Shown here piece after piece: positions 40,835 through 64,000 of a DNA stretch of 64,000 bases. The notes beneath the pieces were generated by a model. It did not search any database and was not told the origin of the DNA. It was given only the letters and a program-made list of their open reading frames with translations. The translations under genes were made by a program, and so were the position numbers. The stretch is taken from contig CAWCMR010000025.1 in NCBI GenBank assembly GCA_963796685.1, positions 960,001 through 1,024,000 of the forward strand, read 5' to 3'. The first letter of the stretch is position 1. The number at the start of each line of letters is the position of its first letter. This stretch comes from an uncultured delta proteobacterium. Lineage in GTDB: Bacteria > Myxococcota_A > Polyangia > Fen-1088.

Positions 40835-42181
40835 ATGAAGCCATGCCAGTCCGCACGTCCGCGCAGCACGCCCTCTTGTTTGGAGAAGGGGTGTCGGGCA
40901 TTTCTGCTGTTTGCGCCGGTCCTGCTTCTGGGCGCGTGCTCAGTCGACCTTGGCAGGCTACGGACACCTGCGTCGCCGTCGCCTGACGGAGCCGCAGATA
41001 TCCCCGTCGTGCCCGATGGTGCTCGGCCCGGTGGGGACACGGACGCTGCGGGGGTAGGGCCAGGCGTGGATGGCACGTCGACTTCTCCCGACTCGCGCAC
41101 ACCGAACGAGGTCTTGCCGCCCGACGGCGAAGCTTCCAAGCCGGACGTCCCGATGGCTGCCGAGGACGCGCGCAACGACGCAAGCCAGGTTCCTGGCGAC
41201 ACCGGCGGTCGCGACGATGTCCTTGGCGATGGCGCCGGGAGCGGCGGCGCGGGCGGCGGCGGTGGAACGGGGGGTGTGGATGCAGACGGCGCCGGCGGCA
41301 GCGGCGGGGCTGGCGGTGCGGATGCGGATGGAAATGGCGGGGCTGGCGGTGCGGATGCGGATGGAAATGGCGGGGCTGGCGGTGCAGACATGGGCAACGG
41401 CGGATCCGCGGGAACCGACGCCGAGGTCGATTTACCCTTCGGCGCCGACGGTACCGGCGGTGCGGATCCGGATCTGGTCCTTTGGTACAAGTTCGACGAG
41501 AGCTCGGGAACCGTGGCGTCGGATTCGTCCTCCCTGGGTGGCCACGACGGCACGGTGAGCACGGCCGGCACGAGCGGCAGCGCGACGTTCTCCACCGACT
41601 GCCAGGTGGGCACGCACGCGCTCAGCCTGGCACCGTCGACCTACTCGCCTTCCTCATCGGGCGGTTATGTGTCGCTGCCTGCTCCGGAGGCGTTGGCACC
41701 CGAGGCCGTCACCATCGCGATCTGGGTCAGGCTTGCGTCCGTCTCGTCCAGCCAGAACTGGGCGCGCATCTACGACTTCGGTAGTGGCACCACCGCGAAG
41801 ACATTCTTCTACTTGACCTCACGGGCCAGCGACTCTCCCAACACACCCGTGCGCTTCGGCATCTCCAACACGGGACACACCTCCGCCGCCGAGGAGCGAC
41901 TCGAAGGCTCGACCACCCTCAGCGCCAACGTGTGGCACCACATCGCAGTCGTGCTGCCTGCCGGCGCAGCCTACACGGGGACGCTCTACATCGACGGTCA
42001 TGCCGTGGACACCAACAACGCCATGACCCTGCACCTCTCGGACATCGAAACCACCACCCAGAACTGGCTCGGACGTTCGCCGTTCACGAGTGATCCCTAC
42101 CTGAACGGTTCGCTCGACGACTTCCGCATCTACAAACGAGCCTTGTCGGCGGCCGAGATCCTCGCCCTCGCATTACTCTAG
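40835..42181 (+). CDS. LamG / concanavalin A-like domain lipoprotein
   Basis: Lipobox LGAC; LVLWYKFDE; WARIYDFG; WHHIAV; GSLDDFRIYKRALS. Confidence 0.85.
   Translation: MKPCQSARPRSTPSCLEKGCRAFLLFAPVLLLGACSVDLGRLRTPASPSPDGAADIPVVPDGARPGGDTDAAGVGPGVDGTSTSPDSRTPNEVLPPDGEASKPDVPMAAEDARNDASQVPGDTGGRDDVLGDGAGSGGAGGGGGTGGVDADGAGGSGGAGGADADGNGGAGGADADGNGGAGGADMGNGGSAGTDAEVDLPFGADGTGGADPDLVLWYKFDESSGTVASDSSSLGGHDGTVSTAGTSGSATFSTDCQVGTHALSLAPSTYSPSSSGGYVSLPAPEALAPEAVTIAIWVRLASVSSSQNWARIYDFGSGTTAKTFFYLTSRASDSPNTPVRFGISNTGHTSAAEERLEGSTTLSANVWHHIAVVLPAGAAYTGTLYIDGHAVDTNNAMTLHLSDIETTTQNWLGRSPFTSDPYLNGSLDDFRIYKRALSAAEILALALL
41303..41385 (+). repeat. 33-bp coding tandem repeat, 2.5 copies (GGAGGADADGN)
   Basis: ggcggggctggcggtgcggatgcggatggaaat twice plus a partial copy. 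Confidence 0.9.
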
Positions 42182-46451: not shown

Positions 46452-49400
46452 ATGCGTTTGCCAAAGACAAGCTTGTTCGGCCTCGTAGTGTCCATCGCTC
46501 TTGCTTGCTCCCCCACGAGCACGGAAAATCAAAGACGCATCGGTGCCGATGAGTGCCCGTGCACGTCGAGCAGCGGGTGCGACCCGGGGTTGAGCTGCAC
46601 CGCCGGTGTATGCAACAACGAAGACGGCGGCTCGACGTATGGACCCCAGGCTCGCCTCAAATCGACGGCGGCGAATCCACAATGGGTACAGACCAACTGG
46701 TTGGCGAACAATAGCTTCTTCAATCTCTTCAGCAGCCAAGACCGGGCCTTTGCCCGGACTTGGGACGCTCTCAATGGCGGTCGTGTGTTTCTTACCGCCG
46801 ATGACGGAACGACTTGGACCCAGATCAGCTCCGCCGACAGCGACATCGACATCCTGTCCATGGTTATGTCGAACGGCAACATACTCGCCGGCACCTGGAA
46901 CGGTTTCTATCTATCCACCTCGGGGGGCGCGACCTGGAGTGCCGTATCCCCCACGGGAATCCCTGTCGATGCCGCTATCCGGTCAATCGCCGCGATGGAT
47001 ACCACCCTCTTTGCCGCGACAGCGGGACATATTTACAGATCCTCCAACAGCGGCAGTACCTGGGTCGAAGCGAGCTCGGGCATACCTGCGAACGCCACGG
47101 TGACCTCGATGGTCGCAAATGGAAACGTCATTCTTGCAGGGAGCGACAGCGCCGGTGTCTTCGTGACGACGAACAGCGGAACAAGCTGGACCGCGGTCAA
47201 TTCCGGGCTTACCGACATGCACGTGTCCCAGCTCGCGGCCGTGGGTACCAGGTTGTTTGCAGCCACCTTGAACGGTGTCTTCGTATCCGGCAACAATGGC
47301 ACGAGCTGGGCAGCGGACAGCTCCGGCATCAGAAACGTCAATTGCTTTCTCGTCGCAAGCCCCCAACTGTTTGCTGGAACCGATGACAGCGGGGTCTACC
47401 TCTCCCTCGACAGCGGCGCGACCTGGACATCGTTCAACTCCGGGCTGCCCGATGGCACCCGCGTTTGGTCCCTGGCGGCAAACAGCGACAGCATCTTTGC
47501 CGGGACGGATTCCGGCGTCTGGCGCACACCTTCGACGACCACGCCGAATGCCGCGCCAACCGTGGCGACAGCCGCGGCCGCGAGCTCCAATCCGGTGGCC
47601 GGCAAGACCACGAACCTGAGCGTGCTTGGAGACGATGATGGGGGCGAGGCAAACCTGACCTACACGTGGGCCGCGACCGGGACGCCGCCGGCCTCGGTCA
47701 TTTTCAGCGCAAACGGCACCAACGCGGCCAAGAACACCACCGCGACCTTCGGCGCGGCCGGCAGCTACTCGCTCCAGGTGACCGTGCGCGACCAGCCGGG
47801 GCTCACCATCACCAGCACCGTCGCGGTTACGGTCAATCAGACCCTGACCGGCATCTCCGTGGCGCCCGCCAGCTCGACCCTTCTGCCCCTGGCGACTCAG
47901 CAGTTCGTCGCGACGGCATGGGATCAGTTCGCCGCTGCCCTGGCCCCCCTGCCGACCTTGGCCTGGAGCGTGACTGGCGGCGGAACCATCGACGCCAACG
48001 GTCTGTTCACGGCGGAGACCGCCGTGGGTGGGCCCTACACGGTCGTCGCCCAAAGTGGCGCGGTCAGCGGCACAGCAACGGTTTCCGTGGCGATCCCCAA
48101 TCTTGGGCCAACCATCGACTCCCCGGCCGCGGCCGGCCCCAATCCCGTCGCGGGAAATACCACCTCGCTGTCGGTGCTGGGCAATGACGATGCTGGCGAG
48201 GCGGGCTTGATTTACACCTGGTCCACCATCGGCGCGCCTCCGGCTGCGGTCTCCTTCAGCGCCAACGGCAGCAATTTCGCCAAGAACACGACCGCCACCT
48301 TCACCAAGGCCGGGAGCTACACCTTCCGGGTCACCGTGGCGGACCAGCCAGGGTTGACCACGACCAGCTCGGTCACCGTGACGGTCAATCCGACATTGAC
48401 GGGCATCGTGGTCTCGCCAACCAGCGCCGCGCTCGGCGCCTCCGCCAGCCAGCAGTTCAGCGCCACGGCCCGGGACCAGTTCGGCACCAACCTGGCCACG
48501 CAACCCGCCTTCGCCTGGACGGTGAGCGGCGGCGGAACCATGGCCGCCAGCGGTTTGTTCACCGCGGCTGCGGTTGCGGGCGGCCCCTACACGGTGACCG
48601 CCACCAGCGGTGGGATCAGCGGCACCGCCAGCGTGACCGTGTCCTCGACTCCGAGCACGGTCTACCGAATCAACTGCGGCAGCAGCAGCGCGGCCTCGCC
48701 CTTCACGGCCGACCAATACGCGAGTGGCGGCACCCAGCACACCGTCACCAACACCATCACCACCAGCGGCGTCACGAATCCGGCGCCCATGGCCGTGTAC
48801 CAGAGCGAGCGCTACGGCAGCAGCACCTACACCCTGCCCAACCTGACCCCCGGCAGCCAGTACACCGTTCGCCTACACTTCGCCGAGCTGTATCAGACCG
48901 CCAGCGGCAAGCGCGTGTTCGACGTCGTGCTCAACGGCACCACGGTATTGCCGAAGTTCGACATCTACGCAGCGGCCGGCGGCAACTACAAGGCAGTCGT
49001 ACGCGAGCTCACCGCGACTGCGAGCGCGTCGGGCCAGATCGTCATCAAATTCAATACCGTCACCGACAATGCCAGCATCGAAGGCATCGAGATCGTCACC
49101 TTGACGCCCAACAGTCCGCCCGGCATCGTGGCAGCAGCAGCCGCCGCGCCCAGTCCCGTGTCGGGCAGCACGACCTCGATGTCCGCGCTCGGTGCGGACG
49201 ACGGCGGCGAGGCGAGCCTGACCTACACCTGGAATACCCTCGGCACACCGCCTGCCGCGGTCGCCTTCGGCGCGAACGGCACCAACGCCGCCAAGAACAC
49301 CACCGCGACCTTCAGCAAGGCCGGCAGCTACTCGCTGCAGGTGACCGTGAAGGACCAGCCTGGCCTCACCGCTACCAGCACCGTCGTGGTCACGGTCAAT

Positions 49401-50660
49401 CAGACCCTGACCAGCATCGTGGTGACGCCCGCCAGCGCGACCCTTGCGCCGCTCGGGACCCAGCAGCTCGTCGCGACGGCACAGGACCAATTCGCCGCTG
49501 CCCTCGCGGTCCAGCCAACCTTTGCCTGGAGCGTGACCGGCGGTGGAGCCATCGATACCAACGGCCTGTTCACGGCCACCGCTTCCGCTGGTGGTCCCTA
49601 CCTGGTCACCGCATCCGCGGGCGCCGTCAGTGGCACGGCGACCGTCTCCGTGGTGGTCCCCAACGCCGCGCCAACCATTGCCCGTGCGGCCGCCGCAGGC
49701 CCCAATCCTGTCGTCGGCACCACGACCGCTCTATCCGCGCTCGGCGCCGATGACGGTCCCGAAGCGAGCTTGACCTACACCTGGGCCACCATCGCCACGC
49801 CACCGGCCTCGGTCGCTTTCAGCGCCAACGGCACCAACGCAGCCAAGAGCACGACGGCCACCTTTACCAAGGCGGGAAGCTACACGTTCCAGGTGACGGT
49901 CAAGGATCAGGGCAACTTGACGGCCACCAGCTCGGTCGTGGTGACGGTCAATCCAACCCCGACGAGCATCGTCGTTTCTCCGAGCAGCGCCACGGCCAAC
50001 ACCTCGGCAACGCAGCAGTTCGGCGCCGTCGCCAGAGATCAGTTCGCGGCGAGCCTGGCCGCCCAGCCGATCTTCACCTGGAGCGTGAGCGGCGGGGGCA
50101 CGATTTCGTCGAACGGTCTGTTCACGGCAAGCTCGAGCCCGGGCGGGCCCTACACGGTAACCGCACAGAGCGGCGGCCTGAGCGGCACCGCGAGCGTCAC
50201 GGTGGCCCAGGCCATGGTCTATCAGATCGACTGTGGCGGCAGTGCGGCCACCCCGTATGCTGCGGACAAGTACTACAGCGGCGGAACAGCGCGAACGGTC
50301 ACAAGCAGCATCGGCACGACCGGCGTGACGAATCCCGCTCCGCAGGCGGTGTACCAGGCCGAACGATACGGCGCGGTCACCTATACCTTCCCGAGCCTGA
50401 CCGCCGGCGCCTCGTACACCGTACGCCTGCACTTCGCCGAGCTGTACTGGACCGCAACGGGCAAGCGCAAATTCAATGTCGCGATCAACGGAACGACGGT
50501 CCTGTCGAACTACGATATCTATTCGGTGACCCGCGCGAGGTATGCGGCGGTGGTGAGGGAGTTCACCGCAACCGCGAACACCTCCGGACAGATCGTGATC
50601 AAGTCGACCAACGTCACCGACAATGCCACCATCGAGGGCATTCAGATCCTCGGGCAATGA
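46452..50660 (+). CDS. Large surface lipoprotein: BNR/VPS10-like propeller, four Ig-pair repeats, two malectin domains
   Basis: Lipobox ALAC; S-x-D/N-x-G-x-T-W repeats; LSVLGxDDGGEAxLTYTW x4; INCG..VYQSERYG..YTVRLHFAE x2. Confidence 0.9.
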   Translation: MRLPKTSLFGLVVSIALACSPTSTENQRRIGADECPCTSSSGCDPGLSCTAGVCNNEDGGSTYGPQARLKSTAANPQWVQTNWLANNSFFNLFSSQDRAFARTWDALNGGRVFLTADDGTTWTQISSADSDIDILSMVMSNGNILAGTWNGFYLSTSGGATWSAVSPTGIPVDAAIRSIAAMDTTLFAATAGHIYRSSNSGSTWVEASSGIPANATVTSMVANGNVILAGSDSAGVFVTTNSGTSWTAVNSGLTDMHVSQLAAVGTRLFAATLNGVFVSGNNGTSWAADSSGIRNVNCFLVASPQLFAGTDDSGVYLSLDSGATWTSFNSGLPDGTRVWSLAANSDSIFAGTDSGVWRTPSTTTPNAAPTVATAAAASSNPVAGKTTNLSVLGDDDGGEANLTYTWAATGTPPASVIFSANGTNAAKNTTATFGAAGSYSLQVTVRDQPGLTITSTVAVTVNQTLTGISVAPASSTLLPLATQQFVATAWDQFAAALAPLPTLAWSVTGGGTIDANGLFTAETAVGGPYTVVAQSGAVSGTATVSVAIPNLGPTIDSPAAAGPNPVAGNTTSLSVLGNDDAGEAGLIYTWSTIGAPPAAVSFSANGSNFAKNTTATFTKAGSYTFRVTVADQPGLTTTSSVTVTVNPTLTGIVVSPTSAALGASASQQFSATARDQFGTNLATQPAFAWTVSGGGTMAASGLFTAAAVAGGPYTVTATSGGISGTASVTVSSTPSTVYRINCGSSSAASPFTADQYASGGTQHTVTNTITTSGVTNPAPMAVYQSERYGSSTYTLPNLTPGSQYTVRLHFAELYQTASGKRVFDVVLNGTTVLPKFDIYAAAGGNYKAVVRELTATASASGQIVIKFNTVTDNASIEGIEIVTLTPNSPPGIVAAAAAAPSPVSGSTTSMSALGADDGGEASLTYTWNTLGTPPAAVAFGANGTNAAKNTTATFSKAGSYSLQVTVKDQPGLTATSTVVVTVNQTLTSIVVTPASATLAPLGTQQLVATAQDQFAAALAVQPTFAWSVTGGGAIDTNGLFTATASAGGPYLVTASAGAVSGTATVSVVVPNAAPTIARAAAAGPNPVVGTTTALSALGADDGPEASLTYTWATIATPPASVAFSANGTNAAKSTTATFTKAGSYTFQVTVKDQGNLTATSSVVVTVNPTPTSIVVSPSSATANTSATQQFGAVARDQFAASLAAQPIFTWSVSGGGTISSNGLFTASSSPGGPYTVTAQSGGLSGTASVTVAQAMVYQIDCGGSAATPYAADKYYSGGTARTVTSSIGTTGVTNPAPQAVYQAERYGAVTYTFPSLTAGASYTVRLHFAELYWTATGKRKFNVAINGTTVLSNYDIYSVTRARYAAVVREFTATANTSGQIVIKSTNVTDNATIEGIQILGQ

Positions 50661-52135: not shown

Positions 52136-54244
52136 ATGGTGCTTCGCAAGCGCGGAATCCTGCTTCTCCTCCTGGCCACGAGCTGTGGGGCCCCGCGTGG
52201 GCGCGCTCCGGATGGCGGGATGGTCTTCGATTTCGGCGCCCTGGATCCCGGAATTCTGAGCGCGCCGGGAACCCCGGGCAGCAGCGATGCCGCCGTCAGT
52301 CGCACGGCCGCGTTGCTGGGGACGCTCAACCCGGAAGACAAGATCCAGCTCGTGCACGGGATCGACGGAGCCTACGTCGGCAACGTGGCCGCCGTGGCGG
52401 GACTTTCCGCCCTGACCCTGCAGGACGGTCCCGCCGGGGTTGCGCGTTTTGGCGACGTCACCGCATTCCCGGCGCCCATCACGCTGGCCGCCAGCTGGGA
52501 TCGCGACCTGGTGGAGCGCTGGGGCGCCGCCATGGCCGCCGAGGAGCGCGGCAAGGGCGTCATGATTCAGCTTGGACCCATGATGAACCTGGTGCGCTCG
52601 CCGGCGGCCGGGCGGAACTTCGAGAGCTTCGGCGAAGACCCTTTCCTGTCGGCGGAGCTGTCGGCCGCGGACGTGGTCGGAATGCAGAGCCAAAAAGTCG
52701 TCGCCACGGCCAAGCACTTCGTCGGCAACGAGCAAGAGACCAATCGTATGGGCGTGGATTCGCGGATCGACGAGCGCACCCTGCACGAGCTCTACTACGC
52801 CCCCTTCGAGGCGGCCGTGGGCGCGGGCACGGGCGCCGTGATGTGCTCGTACAACAGGCTCAACGGCAGCTACGCGTGCGAGAACGCCGCGCTGGCAGAC
52901 CTCAAGGAGGGCATGGGTTTCACGGGCTGGGTGATGTCGGACTGGGGTGCCACGCACACGACCGTCGAGGCGGCGAACCGGGGCCTCGATATGGAGATGC
53001 CGGCCGGTGACTTCTTCGCATCGCCGCTGGCCGCGGCCATCGACGCGGGCAGCGTGGCACAAACGCGCCTTGACGACATGGTCGCGCGCCTGCTCGGCGC
53101 CCTGGTGCGCATCGGCGTGCTCGACGATCCGCCGAGCGGCAATCCGAATGCGATCGTGACGTCCCCCGAGCACGATGCCCTGGCCAAGGAAGCCGCCAGC
53201 GCGGGGATCACGCTGCTGCAGAACAAGGGTGCGGCGCTGCCCCTCGACGCGAGCGTCAAGTCCATTGCCGTGATTGGCTCGGCCGGTGGGGACAGCCCCT
53301 TTGCCACGGGCGGCGGCTCGGCCCAAGTCAACACGCGCTACGTAATCTCACCCTTCTCGGCCATTCAAGCGCAGGCACCGACTTCGACCAGCGTCTCCTA
53401 CGCGCGTGGCGACAGCGGCGGGGATCGGGGCTTGGCGGTCGCCGCCGCCGCCGCCGCGGACGCGGCCGTCGTCTTTGCGGCGGTGGACTCTGGCGAGGGC
53501 TATGATCGAGACTCGCTGGCGCTGGCGCCCGACGTGGACGACCTTATCGCCGCCGTCGCGGCAGTCAACTCTCGCACCATCGTGGTCCTGCACGTTCCCG
53601 GCGCGGTGCTGATGCCGTGGCTCGAAGACGTGAGCACTGTGCTGGTGGCCTGGTATCCGGGAGAGCAGAACGGCAGCGCCATCGCCCCGATTCTGTTCGG
53701 GACCGCCAATCCAGGCGGCAAGCTCCCCGTCACCTTTCCCCGCAGCGCCGGCGATCTGCCGCAGGTGTCCACCGACATGGAAGTGCCTTACGGCGAAGGA
53801 CTGGCCATCGGTTATCGCACCCTCGATGCGCGCGGGATCGCGCCGCTGTTTCCCTTTGGCCATGGACTCTCGTACACGACCTTCGCGTACTCGGGGCTCG
53901 GGTTGCGCCCGGGCGCCGCGTCCGGTTCCATCGACGTCGTCTTCACCCTGAGCAACACGGGAACGCGCACCGGCAGCGAGGTGGCGCAGCTCTACCTCGG
54001 CTTTCCAAAGGCCGCGGGCGAACCGCCGCGCCTGTTGCGCGGTTTCGAGCGCGTCTCCCTGTCCCCCGGCGAAAGTCGCCAGGTCACCCTCACCCTCGAC
54101 CCGCGCAAGCTCGCCTGCTGGAATCCCACCGTCCACGCCCGCTACGTTCCGAGCGGCACCTACACCATCGCGGTCGGCGGCTCTTCCCGCGACCTGCCTT
54201 TGCAGACCTCACTGCAAGTGGTGGGATTCGGCCCGCAGGACTGA
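52136..54244 (+). CDS. GH3 beta-glucosidase lipoprotein
   Basis: GRNFESFGEDP; AKHF; VMCSYN; VMSDW; YPGE; PFGHGLSYT; Fn3-like C-terminus. Confidence 0.95.
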   Translation: MVLRKRGILLLLLATSCGAPRGRAPDGGMVFDFGALDPGILSAPGTPGSSDAAVSRTAALLGTLNPEDKIQLVHGIDGAYVGNVAAVAGLSALTLQDGPAGVARFGDVTAFPAPITLAASWDRDLVERWGAAMAAEERGKGVMIQLGPMMNLVRSPAAGRNFESFGEDPFLSAELSAADVVGMQSQKVVATAKHFVGNEQETNRMGVDSRIDERTLHELYYAPFEAAVGAGTGAVMCSYNRLNGSYACENAALADLKEGMGFTGWVMSDWGATHTTVEAANRGLDMEMPAGDFFASPLAAAIDAGSVAQTRLDDMVARLLGALVRIGVLDDPPSGNPNAIVTSPEHDALAKEAASAGITLLQNKGAALPLDASVKSIAVIGSAGGDSPFATGGGSAQVNTRYVISPFSAIQAQAPTSTSVSYARGDSGGDRGLAVAAAAAADAAVVFAAVDSGEGYDRDSLALAPDVDDLIAAVAAVNSRTIVVLHVPGAVLMPWLEDVSTVLVAWYPGEQNGSAIAPILFGTANPGGKLPVTFPRSAGDLPQVSTDMEVPYGEGLAIGYRTLDARGIAPLFPFGHGLSYTTFAYSGLGLRPGAASGSIDVVFTLSNTGTRTGSEVAQLYLGFPKAAGEPPRLLRGFERVSLSPGESRQVTLTLDPRKLACWNPTVHARYVPSGTYTIAVGGSSRDLPLQTSLQVVGFGPQD

Positions 54245-54326: not shown

Positions 54327-57300
54327 TCACTCCACGCGCTCGGTCCAGGTGGTGCGGGTGTAGCGTTCGATGCCGTTGCCGTTCAGCGCCTGTTGCGAGG
54401 TGCTGAAGCTCTCACCGAGGTTGATCGACCCTGGTATCTGGTCAGAGGTCACCCCGATGCCGTCGATGAACAGGCCGGTGCCGACGAACGTACCGCCGGT
54501 CAGTACGGCGTCGTTGATCGTGACGCCTCGTAGCTGGTAGTACGCCCCGTCGGAGCGGAACTCGTGCACCGTGATGTAGCTCGTGCCGTAGCCGAACCCG
54601 CTCGGATTTCCACCCGGACACGCGTTCACGATCTGGCTGGCATCGTACCAACCCGTGATGACCTGGAAGCCGAGGCCGTCCGACCGCAAGATTACCGTCG
54701 GCGTTCCCACCGGCCGCGCCCCCTTCGGCAAATTCGCGCCACCGGACGCGGCGCACCCCTGCGTGGATAGCTTGGCGCCGCCGTTGAAATCGCTCACCAC
54801 GGTGCCGGCCACATCTTGAACGCAGATGCAGTCGCTGCCGGTCTCGGTGTCGTCACACATCTTGAGGATGATCTGCCCAGGGGAGCTGCCTGACGAGTTG
54901 AACGTGGTGTCGAGAATCGGCGAGCTCGAGCTCGCGTCGACCCTGGTCACCACCAACTCGGATCCAGGGTAGGTGGTCGAATACGTTTGAGTTGCCGGGT
55001 CCAGGTTCGAATTCGTCACCTGGGCCAGGTAGATCTTGTTCTTCGAGGAGGGATCCGACGTGGGCAAGCGGTCGAGCTGCACCACGGCCGGCGAGAAATA
55101 GATGGGCTGGCCACAGTGGAGCGAATAGAGCAATCCGACTGTCGACGCCGAGGGCACATACTGGTAGGCGTTGCCCCAGGTATCACCGGTATAGGCCGCC
55201 TTCGCGTATTGCGTGCTCGTCGCGGACGAATAGTCATGGGCAAGCGCGATGTCCGCCATGATCGTCCGCGTCTGCGGGCATGAAGAGTCAGACGTCTGGC
55301 TAGTCATATCGTTGGCAGGTAATTTGATTGCGCCACTCGTCGCGTCTGCGTCCACGATCCACAAGCCCTGATGCGACGCCGTACCTGTCGGATAGCCGGA
55401 GGCAAAGATCAGGCGATTGTTGGCGCTGCCGCTACTGTACCCGTTGAAGTAGAACGCCGGCACCGAAGTCGTTTCGCCGAGGTCGGCCCAAGCGCCACCG
55501 ACAAAGCCCGCGCTCCATTTGAGGCTCAGGTTTCCCGGATTGAGGCCAAGCGTCGCGTCGACGACGTTGGTGATGTCGAGCGCGAAGGGCTTGTTGCCAC
55601 CCGGGCCTTCCGTCATCACCAAGATCGTCCGCCAGTTGCTGCCGGTCTGGTCCGTATCGCAAGTCGACCCGATGCACATGTCCTTGACCTTGGGCGATCC
55701 GGCCAGACCAAAGATGTGCTGGCCCTTGGCAGGGGACAGCGGTTGCCCGCCCTGGGCGTAGAGCTTCGTGATCACGGGCAGCATGTCGTTGGGAATGAAA
55801 GCGAAAGCCTCCTCGCCGCCCTGGTAGATCTGTCCTGCCAGGGTCAGGCTGCCATCCTGGGCAAAGAAGGCGTGCAACATACCGTCATCGTCCCCCACGT
55901 AGACGAGTGGTGGCCGCTTCCAGGTGCTCGCCGAGTATTGCTTGCCGCCAACGAGGCCGTTGTCGGGTGACTGGCCGACCACGATGGGCGTGGACGAGCT
56001 GACCGGTCCCATGAGCGGCGCGGGGTTGCCCAGCTCGGGCTTGCCCAAGAGCCACTGCATGATGCGCTCGGCTTCATCGGCCGTGGCGCCTAGGCCAGCG
56101 GAATTGAGGGCTCCCTTGTTGGTGACGGAGCCCGTGTCGCCGATTTGGACTTGCGTGATGCCAGCGCTCTCGTTGCCGAACCAGATTCGGCGCTTGGTCC
56201 AGTCGGCCGGGTGGCCGTTGGCCGCGACGGTCGCGGCATCCCACAAAAGCTGGGCCCCCCCCGACGCCGTGTCGTACGCGCGCACGGTGCCCTTCCACGA
56301 CGGGTAGCTGCTGCTGGTGTCGTAGAGGTAGGTGCTGTTGCTCACCACCAAGGTGGTCGGATCCTGGATATTCGCCCCCGGCACCGGCGCCGTGGTCGTG
56401 TACGACGGCAGAGGATAGGCCGCCAGGGCGATCTTGTCCGAGATACCCTTGTAGACCTCGTCTTCCGTGGCGCCGAAGGTGGGCAGGCCGTCGAAGTGCG
56501 GGCTGCCCGCCACGGCCAGGTTCCACAGGAACGCATAGGTGTAGGGGTAGCGAACGCTCCACCTCGACCCGGGCACGCTGACCACGACATGGGTCTGGAT
56601 GGGCGCACCCGCAGCCGGGTGAGCCAGGTTATAGGCCTTGGTGATCGCCCCGCACTGGCAACCTGCCAGGGTTGGATTCGAATCCGGGTTGTAGGCGCAC
56701 GCGGTGGAGGCACAATCGACCGCCGGGCCCATGTCGCCGGGACCGTCGGAGTGGCCATCGACCACCAGCACGATGTTGTTGCTCCAGCACGGGGTCTTGT
56801 TGCTGTTGTTGGTGGTGTCGTTGGCCTGTACGGCCGACATGTAGCCCGCGGCACCGTGGTAACTGTCCGGCACGACGTCGTTGTTGAGTGCGCAGGCGAT
56901 GGGGGAAGTATCACCGGTCGCAGTGACGCCACCGAACGAGGCCTTTTCGAGGCGGGCCGCGATCATCAGGGCTCTGTCTGTCGGCGAGATGGTCTTGCCG
57001 CCGAAGGTGGAGACGTTCATCATCGGAACCACGTTCTGGTTCCAGGTAGCGCCAGTCGTGGCCCCACACGAGGCACCCGCGCTGGCGCCGGCCCAAGGCG
57101 GGGCGACCGTCGATTCCTTGCTCGCGTCAGGTGCCACGACCGTGGTCGTGGTCACCCCGGTGGACGTACCGGCCGCGGTGACGATGGACCTCGTAACGGC
57201 GGTATAGGGTGAGGAAGGATTGGCGAGACTGACGGGAGTGTAGGCGGGCCGGCCGTAAATGCCGTCGTTGATGAAGTCCGTCCGCTCGGCGTCGATGGCG

Positions 57301-60300
57301 TTGTACAAGATGCCGCCGATGGTGGGCGACTTGCCCTTGTAGGTCGTGAAGTATTCCGGCTGGGCCATGCTGCCCAGGCCGGAGGTGTTGGGAATGGGAG
57401 CTCCCCGGGTGTACTGGAAGGTGTAGTAGGTGCCTTCGTAGACGCCCGTGCCCTGACCCGAGAAGGCGCACAAGGGCAGAATCGACGGCGCCGTCGAACA
57501 AGAGGACCAGGAGGCCTTGATCTGGTTGTACTTGCCGCTGCCGTCGCCGCGGCGGATGCTCCACAAACTGTCACTCCCGCCCACCTCGGTGTAGGTGACC
57601 CTGTTCAGCGTGGCGTCCGTGTTGATGGCGCCATTGCCACCGTAGTCGATCGTGCAGGGAGAAACCGGACCGGTGACCGGGTCGAAGCACCCGGCGTTCT
57701 TGAGCTCGCCCTGGGTGAGAAGCTTGGTCTCGGTCGCGGTCGTGCCGTTCGTCACCCTCACGTAGGGGAAGACCGCCGTGCTGGCGTCGGTACCGGTCGA
57801 AGGGATGCCCCGGCCCTGGTATGTGCTCATGAACCCGAAGCTCACCTGGTTCGCGTAGTCGGAGACGGCACGGCGCAGGGCGCGCTTGACCGTCATCATC
57901 TTGGACGTGGCCGGCACGCAGGACTCGGCCAGCATCTGGTACGAGCAAGTCCCTCCGCTGGGACAGTCCGCGTCCTCGGTGCACAGATTCCCGTTGTTGC
58001 TGCACCTGGATGAAAGGCAGTCAGCATCGCTGGCGCACCAGATCCCGCTCTCCGAGCACATCTTGGCCGGCTTGCCCTCAGCACAGAAGTCGCCGTACAG
58101 ACTAGCCTGGCACACGCCAGTGGTGTAGCCGCAAGCCGTGTTCGAGGTGGCAAGGCCACGCTTGCAGGTGCCCCAACTGGTACTGGTCGCGGTGGAGGTG
58201 ACGGTGCTGGTGCCCCCGATACACTGCTCGGATTGCTCGCGTCCCGAATAGTCGAGCTCGGAGATGTAGCGACAGAAATCGCCCTTGGTTCTGCTGGTGC
58301 AGGGCTCCTCCGAGGAACAGGGCACGTAGGCCGTTGGCAAGGTGGCGGTGTTGGTGCTCGTGGAAGTAGCGGAGTAGGTCGAATAGTTGCAATAGCCGCG
58401 GTTGGTGGCTTCGCCGCCGATCGAGAGGCAGTCGCCGGGATCGGGAGCCCCCGGGAAGGCGCAGGCCCCGTCCGTCTCCGTACCGGTGGCGGTGATGGTG
58501 GTCGTGTCTTCGAACGATTGGGTGTCGATCAGGGTCATCGTCTGGGTGAAGGTGCTCGTATCGTAGCTGGTCACGGATGCGGTCCCCGTGCCGGTCTGGG
58601 TCGACGTGGAGGTCACCGAGCCGTAGGCCGTCGAGGTACTGGTGCCATAGGCCGTGAAGGTCGAGGTGCCGAGGGCGGTGCTGGAGTTGGTCACCGTGTT
58701 CGAGTTGGTTAGCGTATTCGAGTTCGTCACCGTGTTCGAGCTCGTCACCGTGTTCGATCTCGTCACCGTGTTCGAGTTCGTCACAGTGTTCGAATTCGTC
58801 ACCGTGTTCGATCTCGTCACCGTGTTCGAGTTGGTCACCGTGTTCGAATGCGTCACCGTGTTCGAGTTCGTCACCGTGTTCGAGTTGGTCAGCGTGTTCG
58901 AGTTCGTCACCGTGTTCGAATGCGTCACCGTGTTCGAATTCGTAAGCACGTTCGAGCTGGTCACGGTGTTCGAGTTCGTCACCGTGTTCGACTTCGTCAC
59001 CGTACCCGAGGCGGTGAGCGTGTTGTGCCAGGTGACAGATAATGCGTTGCCATAGGCATTGGTGAGGGTGGCGGTCGAGGTCTGGGTTGTGCTTGCCGCT
59101 GGCCCTTGACAATACCAAGGGTTGGCCCCCCACCCTCCGGTCTTCGTCGCAGTCATGGTGGTCGTCGCAGTTAGCGAACCTTGGACAAGCACGGTCCCTG
59201 TCACAGTATTGGTTTCGGTGCTAAGCGGGCTTGTAACTGTTGTCATCAGGGTCTTCGTACAGTTGTTGTCCCAACGCTGACTCGTGACGATCCCAGTGGT
59301 TATGGACGAATTACTGACGGTCCACTGAGGGCTGTCATTCCACGCTGTGCTCGTTACCGTGGTGTTCCCTGTGAATGTTACATTCACGGTCTGCAGAAAC
59401 GTACTGGTGGCCAGATAGGTGGCCGTCGTTGTCCCTAGGGCAGTAAAGGTGGTTGATGCATATGCCGTCGACGTGCTCGTCCCATACGCCGTGTACGTGT
59501 TCGTTCCGTACCCTGTCGACGAGGTCGTTCCGAGCGCGGTCGAGGTGACCGTGCCGTAGGCCGTGTTAGTGACCGTGCCGTAATTCGTATGGGTCACCGT
59601 CCCAAGCGCTGTCGTGGTGGTCGTTCCATACGCCGTGGTCGAGGTTGTTCCGAGCGCCGTGGTCGTCACCGTTCCATACGCCGTGGTCGAATTGGTTCCG
59701 AGCGCCGTGGTCGTATTGGTGCCGAGCGCCGTGGTCGTCACCGTGCCGAGCGCCGTCGACGTCACCGTCCCGACTGCCGTGGTCGTCACCGTGCCGACCG
59801 ACGTCCCCGTATTCGTGCCGAGCGAGGTGGTGGTCACGGTTCCGTAGGCCGTCGCCGTGTTGGTGACGGTGTTCGACTTGGTGACGGTGTTCGAGTTGGT
59901 GACGGTATTCGAATTGGTCACCGTGTTGGTATTCGTCACGACGGTCGAGCCCGTCAGGGTGTTCGAGCTGGTGACCGTGGCGCTCGGGTTCAGCCACGTC
60001 TGCGTGTTGGAGAACGTCTCGGTATCGCTGACCGTGTCCGTGTACGTGTTGGTGCAGGTGCTCGCCGCGGTACCGAAGTACATGCCCTTCGACCCCATGC
60101 CCGAGAAGTCCCAGCGGCCCCTCTGCCCGACCAACCGGCAGCTCGAGCTGCCCTCCTCGCAATCGGCGCCGACGGCGTTGTAGCGGGCCGTGTTTTCGCC
60201 TGGAAGCCCCTGCATCGACTCGGCGGACTCCAGGACGATGAGCACGTTCGGCTTCAGCGTGTCCACGATGGTCTTGACTTCTTGCAGCGGGTTCGCGTCC

Positions 60301-60563: not shown

Positions 60564-63032
60564 TCAGGCCTTTCGGCCCGAGCGACGGCGCCGCGTTTGG
60601 GTCATCCAAATACTCGCGAGCACCACCCCCCCAAGGCCGAACAGCACCAGCCCCTGGTAGAAGCTGGACGGTTGATAGGTGAATTTCAGGATCCACGAGC
60701 CCTCGGGAACCACGACCCCGCGCAGGGCATGGTCGGCGCGCAGGATGGGCACGGGCTCGCCGTTCAGGCGGGCGCGCCAGCCCTTGTTCCACCCGTCCGT
60801 GAGCACGACCAACCCCGGCGTTTCCATGGCCAGCGAAAGCGTGACGTCCGAGGGCGTCTCCGCGATGACGGTTGCCCGCCCGCGCGCGTCCTCGGGCAGG
60901 GCCACGGGCGTCTCGACATAGGCCACCGCGCGCGGGTCGAAGTCGGGCGACCCCAGTTTTTCCAGCCGCTCCTTGGCGTCGGGGACACTCTCGACGTGGC
61001 GAGGAACGAAAGCGCGCGGAAGTGCCGACGGATTTCTCAAGGCCCAGTAGTCGGGCGCGACCAGGGGCGGCTTGAAGGCCCCTTGCACGGCGCCGCGGAT
61101 GATCTGGTACTCCACACCGAGCAGGTCGAGGATGGGGGAGAGCTTCACGGTCGAGAGCGTGGGATAGCTGACCTTCGGCTTCAGCCATTCGGTCCGGCCG
61201 TAGACGAAATCGTTCTCCTTGGGCTCGCCAGCGAGCAACAGAAGCTGCACGTAGCGCATCGGATCGACCCCGTCGTAGCCGCGGACGTCGCGCAGCCCGG
61301 CCACTTGCGCGAGGGTCGCGGGTAGGCACTGGAACGCGATGATCCGCCCGGTCGAGGTCTTGGCGATCTTTTCCAGGAGCGGAACCGGGGGGTAGTAGAA
61401 AGCCGGGTCGCCCTGGGCGCTGCGGTCGTGCGCGAACCACAGCATGTCGATGAACATGACCGTGCCCACGAACACGGTCGCCCACGAGCGCCAGGTACGA
61501 AGCCGCGCCAGCAGCAGCCAGCTCGCGCACGCCGCCAGGCCGAGCAGACCACCCACGACATAGAGGTGCGCAAACGTCGACTGAACCCGGCCCACGCCAG
61601 AAGCTTCGTGGATCCAGCGCGCGGCCTTGCCCTCCGTGAACAGGGTCACGATTTCCGTGGCGATGGGCTCGGGCAGATGGCCGGCGCGGTAGAACCACCA
61701 CATCGAAAGGGCCCCCACGAGCGCGGCGGGCACGTAGAACCAGCCACGGCGGCCGCCATCGTCGGGCTCGGCGAGCGAGTCCAATCCCGCGGCGGCCATG
61801 GCCAGGATGGCGAAGGAAGCGGCGAACACCATCCGGTTGTGCGACAGCAGGTTGAGGCCCGGCAGCCTGAGGATCATCACGATGCCCCCGATGTCGAGGC
61901 ACCACGCGAGCGCGACGAAGGTGAGGCTCGTGGCGAACACGGCAAAAGACCGGTAGCGACGGTTGCGCCAAGCCAGAGGCGCCAGGAAAAGCGTCGCGAG
62001 GAGGCCGGCGTAGGCGGCGGACATGCTCTCGATCTCGTAGGGGCCGGGCAAGGGATAGCTGTCCTTGCGCGTACCCCCGTTGGCATCCGGCAACACGAGC
62101 AGCGGCAGGGCCGAAAAATCTCCCGGCACGCGCTCTTCGAACCCGGCGGCGCGCTCCGCGGTTCGCGCGCCGGTCCTCGCATACTCGGCGACGGGCAGCA
62201 CGTAGGGAGCGGCCAGTGAAAAGCCGAGCAACCAGCCTGCGATGACGAGCAGCCCCGCCTTGCGCGCCGGCCGGGTCAAGCACTGCTTGCCGTAGGTCTC
62301 GTAGGCCCGCCACAGCCCATAGAGCCCGCAGACCATGAGCACTTGCGCGGCGATGTCGAGCTGCCGGCTGCACAGCACCGCGCACGTCGCCAAGGCGAGC
62401 CCGGCCATTCCCCGCCAGCCGGGCTTACGAACCACCCCATCGACCGCGAGCACGAGCCAAGGCAGATAGTAGACTGGGGCGCTGGTGGGGAAGCCCAGCC
62501 AGAAGACGAAGAACCCCGTCATGGGATAGCTCCACGCCGTGATGACCGCGGGCCAGAATCGCACCCCGAGGGCCCGGCGACAGAACAAGTAGAAACCGAG
62601 GCCCGCGATGAGCGCGGCCACGAGCTGGTGCCAGGCCAGAACCACCGGCGAAGGGATCGCGGCCAGCAGGATCGACAGGGGCGACAACCACGGCCATTGC
62701 AGCACCGGCTTGCCCGCGTACTGGCCGGGAACCCACAATGGCCACCGGCCGGCCCGAAGCTCCGAAGCCACGAACATGCGCTCGGGCTCGATGACATACG
62801 CCAGATCGGACTGGATGGCGTCGTGGGGAATCAGGTTCACCGTCTCGGGCGTCACCGGGATGTAGACGTCGGACTGGGCGAGCAGGTCTATGGGCAGCAG
62901 GATCTTCGTCCCGATCAGGGACGGCCCGTAGAGGATGACCTGCGACGCGAGGATCCCCGCCAGCAAGATCGCCATTCGCGTGCTCTTCGAGGTTTCGATT
63001 CTGTCGCGGATGGCGTCAGCGGCTGTCGACAA
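60564..63032 (-). CDS. YfhO-family (GT-C fold) membrane protein
   Basis: GRWPLWVP..YAGKP; many TM segments; DVRGYDG; ALPRAF; GLVVLTD.W..GWRA..NG; TTG start with AGGAG SD chosen. Confidence 0.85.
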   Translation of the reverse strand: MSTAADAIRDRIETSKSTRMAILLAGILASQVILYGPSLIGTKILLPIDLLAQSDVYIPVTPETVNLIPHDAIQSDLAYVIEPERMFVASELRAGRWPLWVPGQYAGKPVLQWPWLSPLSILLAAIPSPVVLAWHQLVAALIAGLGFYLFCRRALGVRFWPAVITAWSYPMTGFFVFWLGFPTSAPVYYLPWLVLAVDGVVRKPGWRGMAGLALATCAVLCSRQLDIAAQVLMVCGLYGLWRAYETYGKQCLTRPARKAGLLVIAGWLLGFSLAAPYVLPVAEYARTGARTAERAAGFEERVPGDFSALPLLVLPDANGGTRKDSYPLPGPYEIESMSAAYAGLLATLFLAPLAWRNRRYRSFAVFATSLTFVALAWCLDIGGIVMILRLPGLNLLSHNRMVFAASFAILAMAAAGLDSLAEPDDGGRRGWFYVPAALVGALSMWWFYRAGHLPEPIATEIVTLFTEGKAARWIHEASGVGRVQSTFAHLYVVGGLLGLAACASWLLLARLRTWRSWATVFVGTVMFIDMLWFAHDRSAQGDPAFYYPPVPLLEKIAKTSTGRIIAFQCLPATLAQVAGLRDVRGYDGVDPMRYVQLLLLAGEPKENDFVYGRTEWLKPKVSYPTLSTVKLSPILDLLGVEYQIIRGAVQGAFKPPLVAPDYWALRNPSALPRAFVPRHVESVPDAKERLEKLGSPDFDPRAVAYVETPVALPEDARGRATVIAETPSDVTLSLAMETPGLVVLTDGWNKGWRARLNGEPVPILRADHALRGVVVPEGSWILKFTYQPSSFYQGLVLFGLGGVVLASIWMTQTRRRRSGRKA

Positions 63033-63092
63033 CGGGGCGTCTCCTGTTCGAGCCGGGTATCGTATCACCATCGCCCCGCGGCGTCCCGAACA

Positions 63093-63324
63093 CCCCCTCG
63101 CCCCGCGCAGCGAAGCGGGAAGAGGGTTGGGGTGAGGGGCAGCCCTTTCAAGGTGTTCGCTGGGGCCCAGATCCTCGCCTCTCCCCGACGGTCCCCGACG
63201 GGGAGAGGCCGACGACGTCTGCGTCGGCGGGTGAGGGGGCACTCGCGAAAGGGCGACTTCTTCTGCCCCTCACCCGCCGCGCTTCGCGCGGCGCCCTCTC
63301 CCCGCGTGACCGCGGGGCGAGGGG
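63093..63324. repeat. Three palindromic REP-like elements (CCCCTCACCC...CTCTCCCC...GGGGAGAGG family)
   Basis: Copies at about 63093-63139, 63173-63240 and an inverted one at 63266-63324; each can form GC-rich hairpins. Confidence 0.75.
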
Positions 63325-63486
63325 ATGTGGCCGCTGCGCGACCTCGGAGCTCCCCCGCGTGCCGCTCGCAGGCCGGGCACACGGCTGGCGGCTCGCGCGA
63401 GCCACCCACGCCAACCACGACACGTGCTCCCGCACGACCGTCGCTGCGGCTTGCCCAACTCTTCCATGATAGAGTCCGCCCCCGAA

Positions 63487-64000
63487 ATGACCGCTGCCTC
63501 GCCGAGAGAGAAGACCTTCTGGACCCCTCAGAACATCGTTCTGGTTCTCCTGCCGGTGCTGTCGCTCACCCTGCTCCTCGGTAACGGCAAGTACGTCGAG
63601 CCGATGTTCATTCACGCGACGTATTACCTGATGCTGCTCTTGGTGGCTTCCTGGGCGACGGTCTACCTGCTCTCGGCGCGTAACCTGACCAAGGCCACGG
63701 CCTGGGAATGGGTGAAGGAGAACCGGGCCGGCATCCTCACCGCGGCGGTGGTCACCGTCATCACCGCGCTCGCGGTGCACCCGGCCTTGCGCATCCTCGC
63801 CGACGAAACCAACCTGCTCGGGACCTCGAAGAACTTCTTCCATCAGAAGACGGCGACCTTCACCGTGTCGGGCAAGTACTACTACGACGCCTTCTGGGAC
63901 GCCGGCGTGGTCATCGACCGCCGTCCCTCGCTCTTCCCCTTCCTGGTCAGCCTGATCCACGTCGTGCGCGGCTACAGCTACACCAACGTCTTCCTTTTCA
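63487..64000 (+). CDS. GT-C (ArnT/PMT-like) membrane glycosyltransferase, 3' partial (not in the ORF track)
   Basis: My translation: MTAASPREKTFW..., about 3 TM segments, then RILADETNLLGTS and IDRRPSLFPFLVSL; open to the window end. Confidence 0.7.
   Translation, partial: MTAASPREKTFWTPQNIVLVLLPVLSLTLLLGNGKYVEPMFIHATYYLMLLLVASWATVYLLSARNLTKATAWEWVKENRAGILTAAVVTVITALAVHPALRILADETNLLGTSKNFFHQKTATFTVSGKYYYDAFWDAGVVIDRRPSLFPFLVSLIHVVRGYSYTNVFLF

Follow-up and report, generated by a model that had tools for sequence, protein, structure and literature searches.

Two unlike repeat arms of matched length around a variable knob in a PilY1-family protein of an uncultured myxobacterium: a possible out-and-back stalk

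In its main text, a 2026 survey of 150 myxobacterial PilY1 proteins describes a variable N-terminal part set on a conserved C-terminal part, and an N-terminal von Willebrand factor A (vWFA, also vWA) domain in the Myxococcus xanthus PilY1.3-like clades (PMC13190605). A stalk made from two unlike repeat regions is on record, according to one published account, for the streptococcal AgI/II proteins (SpaP/P1, SspB, BspA), in which a variable globular domain lies between an alanine-rich alpha-helix and a proline-rich helix, both with long repeats, that intertwine as a base-stabilised stalk and raise the domain off the surface; these proteins are anchored to the Gram-positive cell wall, and the association of their arms was solved experimentally (PMC7732690). 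Bacterial fibrillar adhesins are likewise described as a stalk plus an adhesive tip with fast-evolving repeats (PMC9210967). Here, we analyzed a 64,000-nucleotide stretch of DNA from an uncultured delta proteobacterium of the Myxococcota_A (GCA_963796685.1, contig CAWCMR010000025.1, positions 960,001 to 1,024,000; hereafter, the window), focusing on a gene that is predicted to encode a PilY1-family type IV pilus tip adhesin and that carries a large Thr-rich repeat insertion. Two unlike repeat arms flank a small knob within this insertion and co-vary in length between the available orthologs, and a matched-arm stalk running out and back is our best reading of it, with a probability of about 0.5.

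Like PilY1/PilC of Pseudomonas aeruginosa and M. xanthus, the window protein combines a PF05567 domain with many Cys residues; at motif level it is also vWA-like, and PilW and pilin genes lie upstream on its strand. Unlike them, it carries nested 6-mer and 8-mer arrays rich in Thr that, with a knob, take up ~530 residues in the loop after a motif resembling the metal ion-dependent adhesion site (MIDAS), this motif is degenerate (ESAES), and three genes lie between the adhesin and the pilin genes. The words threonine, repeat, insertion, low complexity and stalk are all absent from the main text of the PilY1 survey, supplements aside (PMC13190605), and a full-text literature search combining PilY1, von Willebrand and threonine-rich returned no PilY1 paper with "threonine-rich" among the matches listed. 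The preliminary description of the window knew of no PilY1 of such architecture, and none was found in the PilY1 literature searched. In the way it would work, the window protein comes closest to AgI/II among the described systems, a likeness that is architectural and does not imply homology: in both, a variable domain is flanked by two unlike repeat arrays, those of the window protein being matched in extent, and the homologs of the window protein carry differing middle modules. Chemistry, unit size, host protein and phylum all differ: the arms of the window protein are Pro-free, consist of Thr-alternating 6- and 8-residue units, are set within a vWA-like loop of a pilus protein, and would associate. 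The proposed stalk-plus-tip design and the fast-evolving repeats are shared with fibrillar adhesins and with the fungal Als/Flo/Awp proteins, as far as these are described in the source cited above, and Awp1 was the top, non-significant structural match; the fibrillar stalks described there, made of repeats or rich in Ser/Thr, run in a single pass to a terminal tip, whereas the stalk proposed here would be double-pass, in a domain loop, with two number-matched arm types. New here are the nested arms of two types with a knob, and their counts co-varying between orthologs.

Repeat units were aligned in register on the protein, and the DNA arrays were called using Tandem Repeats Finder (TRF). From a signal-peptide-like N-terminus, the protein proceeds to a split vWA-like domain with the insertion, then to a Cys-rich module and the PilY1 C-terminal domain (Table 1). 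The insertion limits at 58460-60056 correspond to Cys652 and Cys121, with ~530 Thr-rich residues between them, and a 24-residue leader after Cys121 precedes the first 6-mer block. Strict matching to the pattern T.[LYVF]GT.[TS]. was found for 17 of the 18 in-register units of 8-mer array A, and the DNA of 6-mer array B was called at period 18 with 17.8 copies, 84% matches and a score of 444 (58684-59003). The earlier account of nested arrays, including 18 plus 1 units in both long arrays, is correct under one generous counting rule, with array edges fuzzy by about one unit. Thr or Ser occurred at both i and i+2 at 0.330 of positions in residues 122-651, compared with 0.230 +/- 0.011 (maximum 0.261) in 1000 shuffles; Thr plus Ser make up about half of each arm segment, and the proline count in 373 arm residues is 0. 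A super-period of two or three units was sought in the arrays and none was prominent, though TRF lists periods of 48 and 72.

Segment composition in the window follows the nesting. The proximal N block is amide-rich (N+Q 0.19, G+A 0.04) and the proximal C block is not (N+Q 0.04, G+A 0.18), while the distal N array is Gly/Ala-rich (N+Q 0.04, G+A 0.24) and the distal C array amide-rich (N+Q 0.25, G+A 0.02). Segments that face each other on an out-and-back path are thus opposite in type, amide-rich versus Gly/Ala-rich, and the same opposition was found in the ortholog G007 and largely in the ortholog G001.

A match to the C-terminal part was found in 28 of 41 related genomes and in 12 of 12 genomes of the genus, and the insertion layout was common to only two of those related genomes, G001 (77% identical) and G007 (73%). 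A profile of the knob matched 3 of 89 genomes of the family; a profile of the base/Cys region, run against 185,579 species genomes, retrieved only G001 and G007 besides the window, and the same profile gave zero matches to metagenome contigs. A search with the N-terminal region for further carriers of the layout added only one relative, which is insertion-less.

Block lengths were then counted between homologous landmarks in the window, G001 and G007, in this order. The 6-mer block A has 43, 43 and 43 amino acids (aa) and the tail 72, 72 and 72 aa; the 8-mer array has 144, 144 and 104 aa, equal to 18, 18 and 13 units, and the 6-mer array 114, 108 and 84 aa, equal to 19, 18 and 14 units, around a middle segment of 133, 127 and 133 aa. 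Co-variation of the 8-mer and 6-mer copy numbers in homologs, which the preliminary description had proposed as a check, was thus observed (18/19, 18/18 and 13/14, with constant outer blocks), and between the window and G007 both long arrays differ by exactly five units. The unit sequences are replaced in G001 (TVTAVGTH for TALGTVTT, and TTTAQN for TVTNSN) with the periods of 8 and 6 kept and the unit counts nearly as in the window (18/18 vs 18/19). Two residues stayed fixed through this turnover, Gly in the 8-mer and, in the 6-mer, Asn at position 6. These data show co-variation of the two arms in the available orthologs. Alignment of the units at the DNA level to place the five-unit indels was ambiguous, the units being too alike; MAFFT places both five-unit gaps knob-distally, end gaps being its default preference.

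The array counts were inspected at the read level for G007 only, whose assembly is less contiguous than the other two. Contigs from three public runs of three studies, one of the runs possibly being the source sample, span its 13-unit 8-mer array without gaps. Its 6-mer array is fragmented into short unitigs in all runs, with depth ratios of 2.7, 1.7, 2.6, 1.4, 0.7 and 1.0 (run X1) and of 2.0, 1.3, 2.1, 0.9, 0.7 and 0.8 (run X3), never higher than the genomic multiplicities of the unitig words (3, 2, 3-4, 2, 1 and 1). Since the depth ratios stay within these multiplicities, a collapsed and under-counted 6-mer array in G007 is not indicated. The G007 stretch (L023:2300-4000) was near-identical (0.77-0.94 of sampled words) in bioreactor and soil metagenome runs of three studies; run X5 covered no more than 17 of 30 bins of the stretch and other runs small shares, and these matches were not used for habitat or absence.

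Same-genus relatives carry other insertions, of 460-900 aa, at the equivalent site, in which Thr-alternating arms of TNTNT or TGTAT type surround differing middles, either small knobs or one to three modules annotated as PF00754, PF22633, PF16841 or PF13385. In the insertion-less protein P0093, a GMG motif passes into the Cys-rich module within ~20 residues. Across the family, the site is a hot spot in which Thr-rich arms flank interchangeable middle domains. In all 20 homologs inspected, the arms have a Cys at either base, one where the N arm starts and one where the C arm ends, and Cys121 and Cys652 may form a basal disulfide clasp. By one rule, 23 distinct insertions were segmented; both anchors were present in 25, from which L027 and L029 were removed as near-duplicates, with 13 anchor-less database proteins of > 1500 aa and the duplicate L026 left out. 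The single-knob class, defined by one core of <= 170 aa, has N/C arms of 253/283, 243/252, 303/320, 274/174, 216/187, 172/155 and 204/179 aa, and the arm lengths correlate with r=0.73, 96 of 5040 permutations being as good (n=7, three of which, the window, G001 and G007, are non-independent). Opposite arm types were also found in P0008 and L028, whose N arm is rich in amides and whose C arm is rich in Gly/Ala. As a separate observation, one relative has the gene in two tandem copies, L030 and L031 (G004:C13:296800-311500), that differ in insertion content. The insertion of one copy is long, rich in Thr/Ala/Gly and built around a small core, and that of the other has three discoidin- or carbohydrate-binding module (CBM)-like modules, a pattern that suggests duplication followed by module exchange.

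In the reading that we favour, the chain would exit the vWA-like domain at Cys121, in the loop after the first strand and the MIDAS-like motif, and run outward through the amide-rich 6-mer block and the Gly/Ala-rich 8-mer array to the small unique knob, from which it would return through the amide-rich 6-mer array and then, by way of the 8-mer-like tail that is rich in Gly/Ala, reach Cys652. Running next to each other, the arms would build a regular stalk, rich in beta structure, to which every short unit contributes a strand and a Gly or Asn turn; the arms would then have to match, and stalk length could change only if both change together. Such a stalk would keep a binding module that evolves rapidly at a distance from the pilus tip. 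Contact between the arms, unit-to-unit pairing and the adhesive role of the knob are what we infer; the side-by-side beta stalk is favoured because the arms match and change together, the unit length and turn residues are conserved, Pro is absent, and the facing segments are complementary. Its geometry may be that of stacked strand-turn meanders, of two equal-height rods or of true unit-to-unit rungs. A more specific version, which we consider possible and put forward tentatively, is a heterotypic two-arm beta stalk, an architecture new among proteins, in which the 6-residue array zips unit for unit onto the antiparallel 8-residue array above a base disulfide, serving in the genus as a platform at the type IV pilus tip for swapped modules (discoidin-, CBM- and LamG-like modules and small knobs).

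Several observations weigh against the stalk reading. The co-variation comes from three genomes and two comparisons, for which permuting three points is powerless, and every genome in the comparison is metagenome-assembled. Whole-arm lengths (187/186, 187/180 and 147/156 aa) fit about as well as the unit counts, so that pairing of one 8-mer with one 6-mer and arms simply equal in length are not told apart; the proximal blocks, moreover, have seven versus nine units. The length ratios of the distal pair are 1.26, 1.33 and 1.24, near 8:6, and this leans towards unit counting. The 14-residue rungs proposed at the outset are thus not singled out. In the wider family, the arms of L030 are unequal (274/174), multi-domain insertions have unequal outer arms (for example 151/96, 163/94 and 133/94, in a segmentation that is crude), and the composition contrast is weaker in L025 and none in L030. 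The LamG-type proteins P0034 and P0035 are identical except for 48 additional aa (three 16-mers) in the N arm and 120 (ten 12-mers) in the C arm, differences that have the same direction and are unmatched in count and in length, and that reflect either allelic copy-number variation or assembly collapse.

Structure prediction adds to these objections. AlphaFold2 (AF2) modelling of residues 110-665 as a single sequence gave a mean predicted local distance difference test (pLDDT) score of 43.9, with the 8-mer array as the only confident part (73-84) and modelled as 5-residue strands and 3-residue turns of period 8. With the three orthologs aligned (residues 187-582), the 8-mer array reached pLDDT 84-91, dropping to 58 towards the knob, and values stayed low in the knob (25-48) and in the 6-mer array (22-33); the models have no arm-arm contact, the 8-mer array being folded alone. 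Arrays folding each by itself had been named beforehand as one outcome that would speak against a hairpin, and the 8-mer array does so in these shallow-alignment predictions from one or three sequences, while the 6-mer array was left unmodelled. A two-chain complex prediction of residues 187-342 and 464-582 scored 0.00 in a run without control, and is given no weight either way. For the stalk claim as a whole, the matching and co-varying arm lengths, the opposite types of facing segments, the Cys at either arm base and the regular strand-turn pattern predicted for the 8-mer array speak in favour, and the separate folding of the 8-mer array speaks against.

The main rival takes the arms for flexible spacers of mucin-like type, probably O-glycosylated, which tether the knob without pairing, their similar counts reflecting ancestry and chance. 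Thr plus Ser at ~0.5 in every arm segment, three GT-C-like membrane proteins nearby, the YfhO-like one being kept in G001 and G007, and the low AF2 confidence for the 6-mer array and the knob are all consistent with it. Pro/Thr linkers, however, are Pro-rich, and 0 Pro was found in the 373 arm residues; unit length, Gly and Asn survive complete unit turnover in G001, the same five-unit difference appears in both arrays between the window and G007, and the YfhO-like gene is non-adjacent in five of five other genus genomes, whose homologs also have Thr-rich arms. We therefore hold unpaired spacers to be unlikely, while glycosylation itself could be compatible with arm pairing.

Improbable, in our estimate, is a row of independent beta-solenoids or rods, one per array and joined in series with the knob, the arms having no lateral contact and their equal counts being coincidental. 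The folding of the 8-mer array without a partner in the AF2 models (pLDDT up to 91) fits such an arrangement, and the weak Foldseek matches, none of them significant, are beta-helices: against the PDB, both models gave 0 matches at E <= 0.001 (best E 3.0 and 0.35), and the non-significant list consists mostly of beta-helices (Awp1 at the top, LpxA/LpxD, MpAFP and tapirin). However, the 6-mer array was modelled as no fold and has no Pfam match at E <= 1, a loop insertion must return to its start, so that rods in series would still fold back, and the matched counts and opposite facing composition would be left unexplained, with no super-period prominent. A left-handed beta-helix of hexapeptide repeats was also considered for the 6-mer array and found no support: Pfam, searched with residues 120-655 at E <= 1, returned zero families, hexapeptide-repeat families included, and the AF2 pLDDT was 22-33. 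Far down the scale, and very improbable, stands a reading in which the Thr-ladder faces of the arms bind an ordered substrate (crystalline polysaccharide, mineral or ice) and the knob is secondary. TxT ladders can form ice-binding faces, the Thr/Ser alternation exceeds that of shuffles (0.330 vs 0.230), and a beta-helical antifreeze protein is in the non-significant Foldseek list; yet zero significant structural or sequence matches to such proteins were obtained, and the arms of relatives flank carbohydrate-binding-type modules (PF00754, PF16841, PF13385), suggesting that the middle module binds. Taking all of this together, the matched-arm out-and-back stalk is retained as the preferred reading.

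Knob sequences have identities of 70% (window vs G007) and 37% (window vs G001). The tip had been envisaged as a disulfide-bonded domain, a feature that is not conserved: G007 lacks Cys386, the only Cys in the G001 knob is at a different position, and each ortholog is thus left with one non-equivalent Cys. Zero matches were obtained for the knob profile against Joint Genome Institute (JGI) metagenome contigs, for a knob word search in proteins of 1115-3551 aa, and for a knob search of 1.84 billion representatives, and an Atlas query with the insertion returned nothing usable. Homology of the window knob to the knobs of other single-knob relatives was rejected (hhalign probability 0.9%).

The assignment to PilY1 made in the preliminary description was borne out by PF05567 above the Pfam threshold, and PilW and pilin genes lie upstream at a distance of three genes. 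A Pfam and NCBIfam scan of the whole 2029-aa protein gave zero matches, and the PF05567 beta-propeller was found when residues 1250-2029 were scanned alone (29.8 bits vs a cut-off of 28.1) and in the genome-wide search (31 bits). Residues 840-2029 as query retrieved 91 proteins at E <= 0.001 among 7997 candidates scored, with full-length homologs 49-58% identical across these residues; many of the 91 have PF05567, one is annotated by its source as a PilC/PilY family protein, and a few are attributed by their sources to Polyangia or Deltaproteobacteria. The gene is thus placed in the PilY1 family of an uncultured myxobacterium, with pilus-tip location and adhesion as predictions from this membership. 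The window genome is a metagenome assembly of 7.3 Mb in 26 contigs, and it holds a paralog that is 36% identical over the C-terminal part (C13:159071-161644 (-), L033, open frame of 1698 aa). The database entries P0004, P0005, P0021 and others of 1160-1300 aa begin at an internal MM[TI]VKRALRR of the vWA-like domain, and one entry of the P0004 type sits on a 249-kb contig. These entries look like gene calls without the N-terminal Thr-rich part, and because such short calls miss that part, database entries under-represent the insertion.

The description of the host domain as vWA-like holds at motif level, since the window protein has LIVLESAES and NNIVLVVDGH (from residue 1216) at the places where distant relatives read LVVLDTSGS and ..TDGE... 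A language-model lead points the same way: for residues 836-1345, the nearest named Atlas cluster is "VWFA domain-containing protein" with a score of 0.92, which serves as a lead only. A Pfam VWA match was lacking, the domain being undetected in the whole protein and in the parts scanned separately, and a sequence search of the PDB gave zero matches at E <= 1. From the motifs, the insertion is assigned to a split vWA-like domain, in which it occupies the loop that follows strand beta1 and the MIDAS-like motif. This motif reads E-S-A-E-S in the window subfamily and D-T-S-G-S in distant relatives, and the vWA-like domain may no longer bind ligands in a metal-dependent manner.

Table 1. Features of the adhesin gene, its insertion and its neighbours (window positions unless a locus or contig is named; residues are those of the 2029-aa protein).
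Feature	Position	Strand	Evidence or remark
Whole adhesin gene, 2029 aa	54327..60416	(-)	single open reading frame (ORF) holding the entire insertion
KPNVLIVLESAES, residues 55-67, vWA beta1 and degenerate MIDAS motif (ExAxS; distant relatives DxSxS)	60216..60254	(-)	motif level
Cys121, N-arm base	60054..60056	(-)	Cys at junction in 20/20 insertion-bearing homologs inspected; absent in insertion-less P0093
6-mer block A, residues 146-188, 7 NTVTNS-like units, 43 aa	59853..59981	(-)	TRF period 18 at 59860-59927
8-mer array A, residues 189-332, 18 units, skeleton T-A-[LYV]-G-T-x-T-x	59421..59852	(-)	TRF periods 24/48/72 at 59459-59852
Middle segment, residues 333-465: 3 degenerate 8-mers (333-356), then unique Thr-rich knob of ~110 aa with Cys386 and Cys436	59022..59420	(-)	
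6-mer array B, residues 466-579, TLTASG and 18 strict T-V-T-x-S-N units = 19	58680..59021	(-)	
8-mer-like tail, residues 580-651, 3 clear and 6 degenerate units, 72 aa	58464..58679	(-)	TRF period 24 at 58620-58670
Cys652, C-arm base, first Cys of C..G..DP..C	58461..58463	(-)	
Cys-rich module, residues 653-835, family-conserved	57912..58460	(-)	78% identity in A3
Rest of vWA-like domain, ~residues 836-1340, including NNIVLVVDGHSDGPGD	56397..57911	(-)	motif
PF05567-matched stretch	55503..55928	(-)	Pfam, 29.8 bits
YfhO-like GT-C membrane protein, 892 aa, upstream neighbour	60564..63242	(-)	PF09586, 31.8 bits vs 28.5
PMT_2-like membrane protein, 627 aa, extends past the window	63325..64000	(+)	PF13231, 24.4 bits, below cut-off 26.1
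PTPS_related GT-C-like membrane protein	L038:10320-11942	(-)	36.8 bits vs 26.4
PilW and N_methyl pilin genes, past the right window edge	L038:7363-9227 = genome C25:1027362-1029226	(-)	PilW PF16074, 48.5 bits

The PilW and pilin genes lie on the strand of the adhesin, 7-9 kb upstream, with zero pilin neighbours within the window itself; between them and the adhesin are an ORF of 695 aa without Pfam match, the PMT_2-like gene on the opposite strand and the YfhO-like gene. A similar pilin cluster is found on contig C1 (~32.7-35 kb), and further pilin-like genes are on C1, C15 and C26. Only the two closest genomes, G001 and G007, retain the YfhO-like neighbour, which is possibly linked to the adhesin; as a family-wide partner it was rejected, being non-adjacent in 5/5 other genus genomes (nearest at 44 kb and 147 kb). 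Three GT-C-like membrane proteins, YfhO-like, PMT_2-like (below cut-off) and PTPS_related, were noted between the PilW/pilin genes and the adhesin, and, judged from these neighbours, periplasmic glycosylation of the adhesin or of the pilins is a possibility. Other neighbours are a malectin/PKD protein of 1402 aa, a LamG-like (Laminin_G_3) protein and a GH3 glycosidase, given with 46452-50660 (+), 40835-42181 (+) and 52136-54244 (+). By these annotations, the gene neighbourhood appears to be polysaccharide-oriented.

PilY1 is the part of the pilus that contacts the surroundings, and how its variable N-terminal half gains specificity and reach is poorly understood. If the arms truly pair, joint changes in two short repeat arrays would be a simple and genetically tunable way of setting how far a module projects from the pilus tip. 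The stalk would then be a beta-strand counterpart, independently arisen, of the alpha-helix/polyproline II (PPII) stalk of AgI/II, and a rare natural case of two unlike tandem arrays forced to change copy number jointly. At the level of the family, the pattern marks a hot spot of adhesive-module exchange among uncultured soil and bioreactor myxobacteria.

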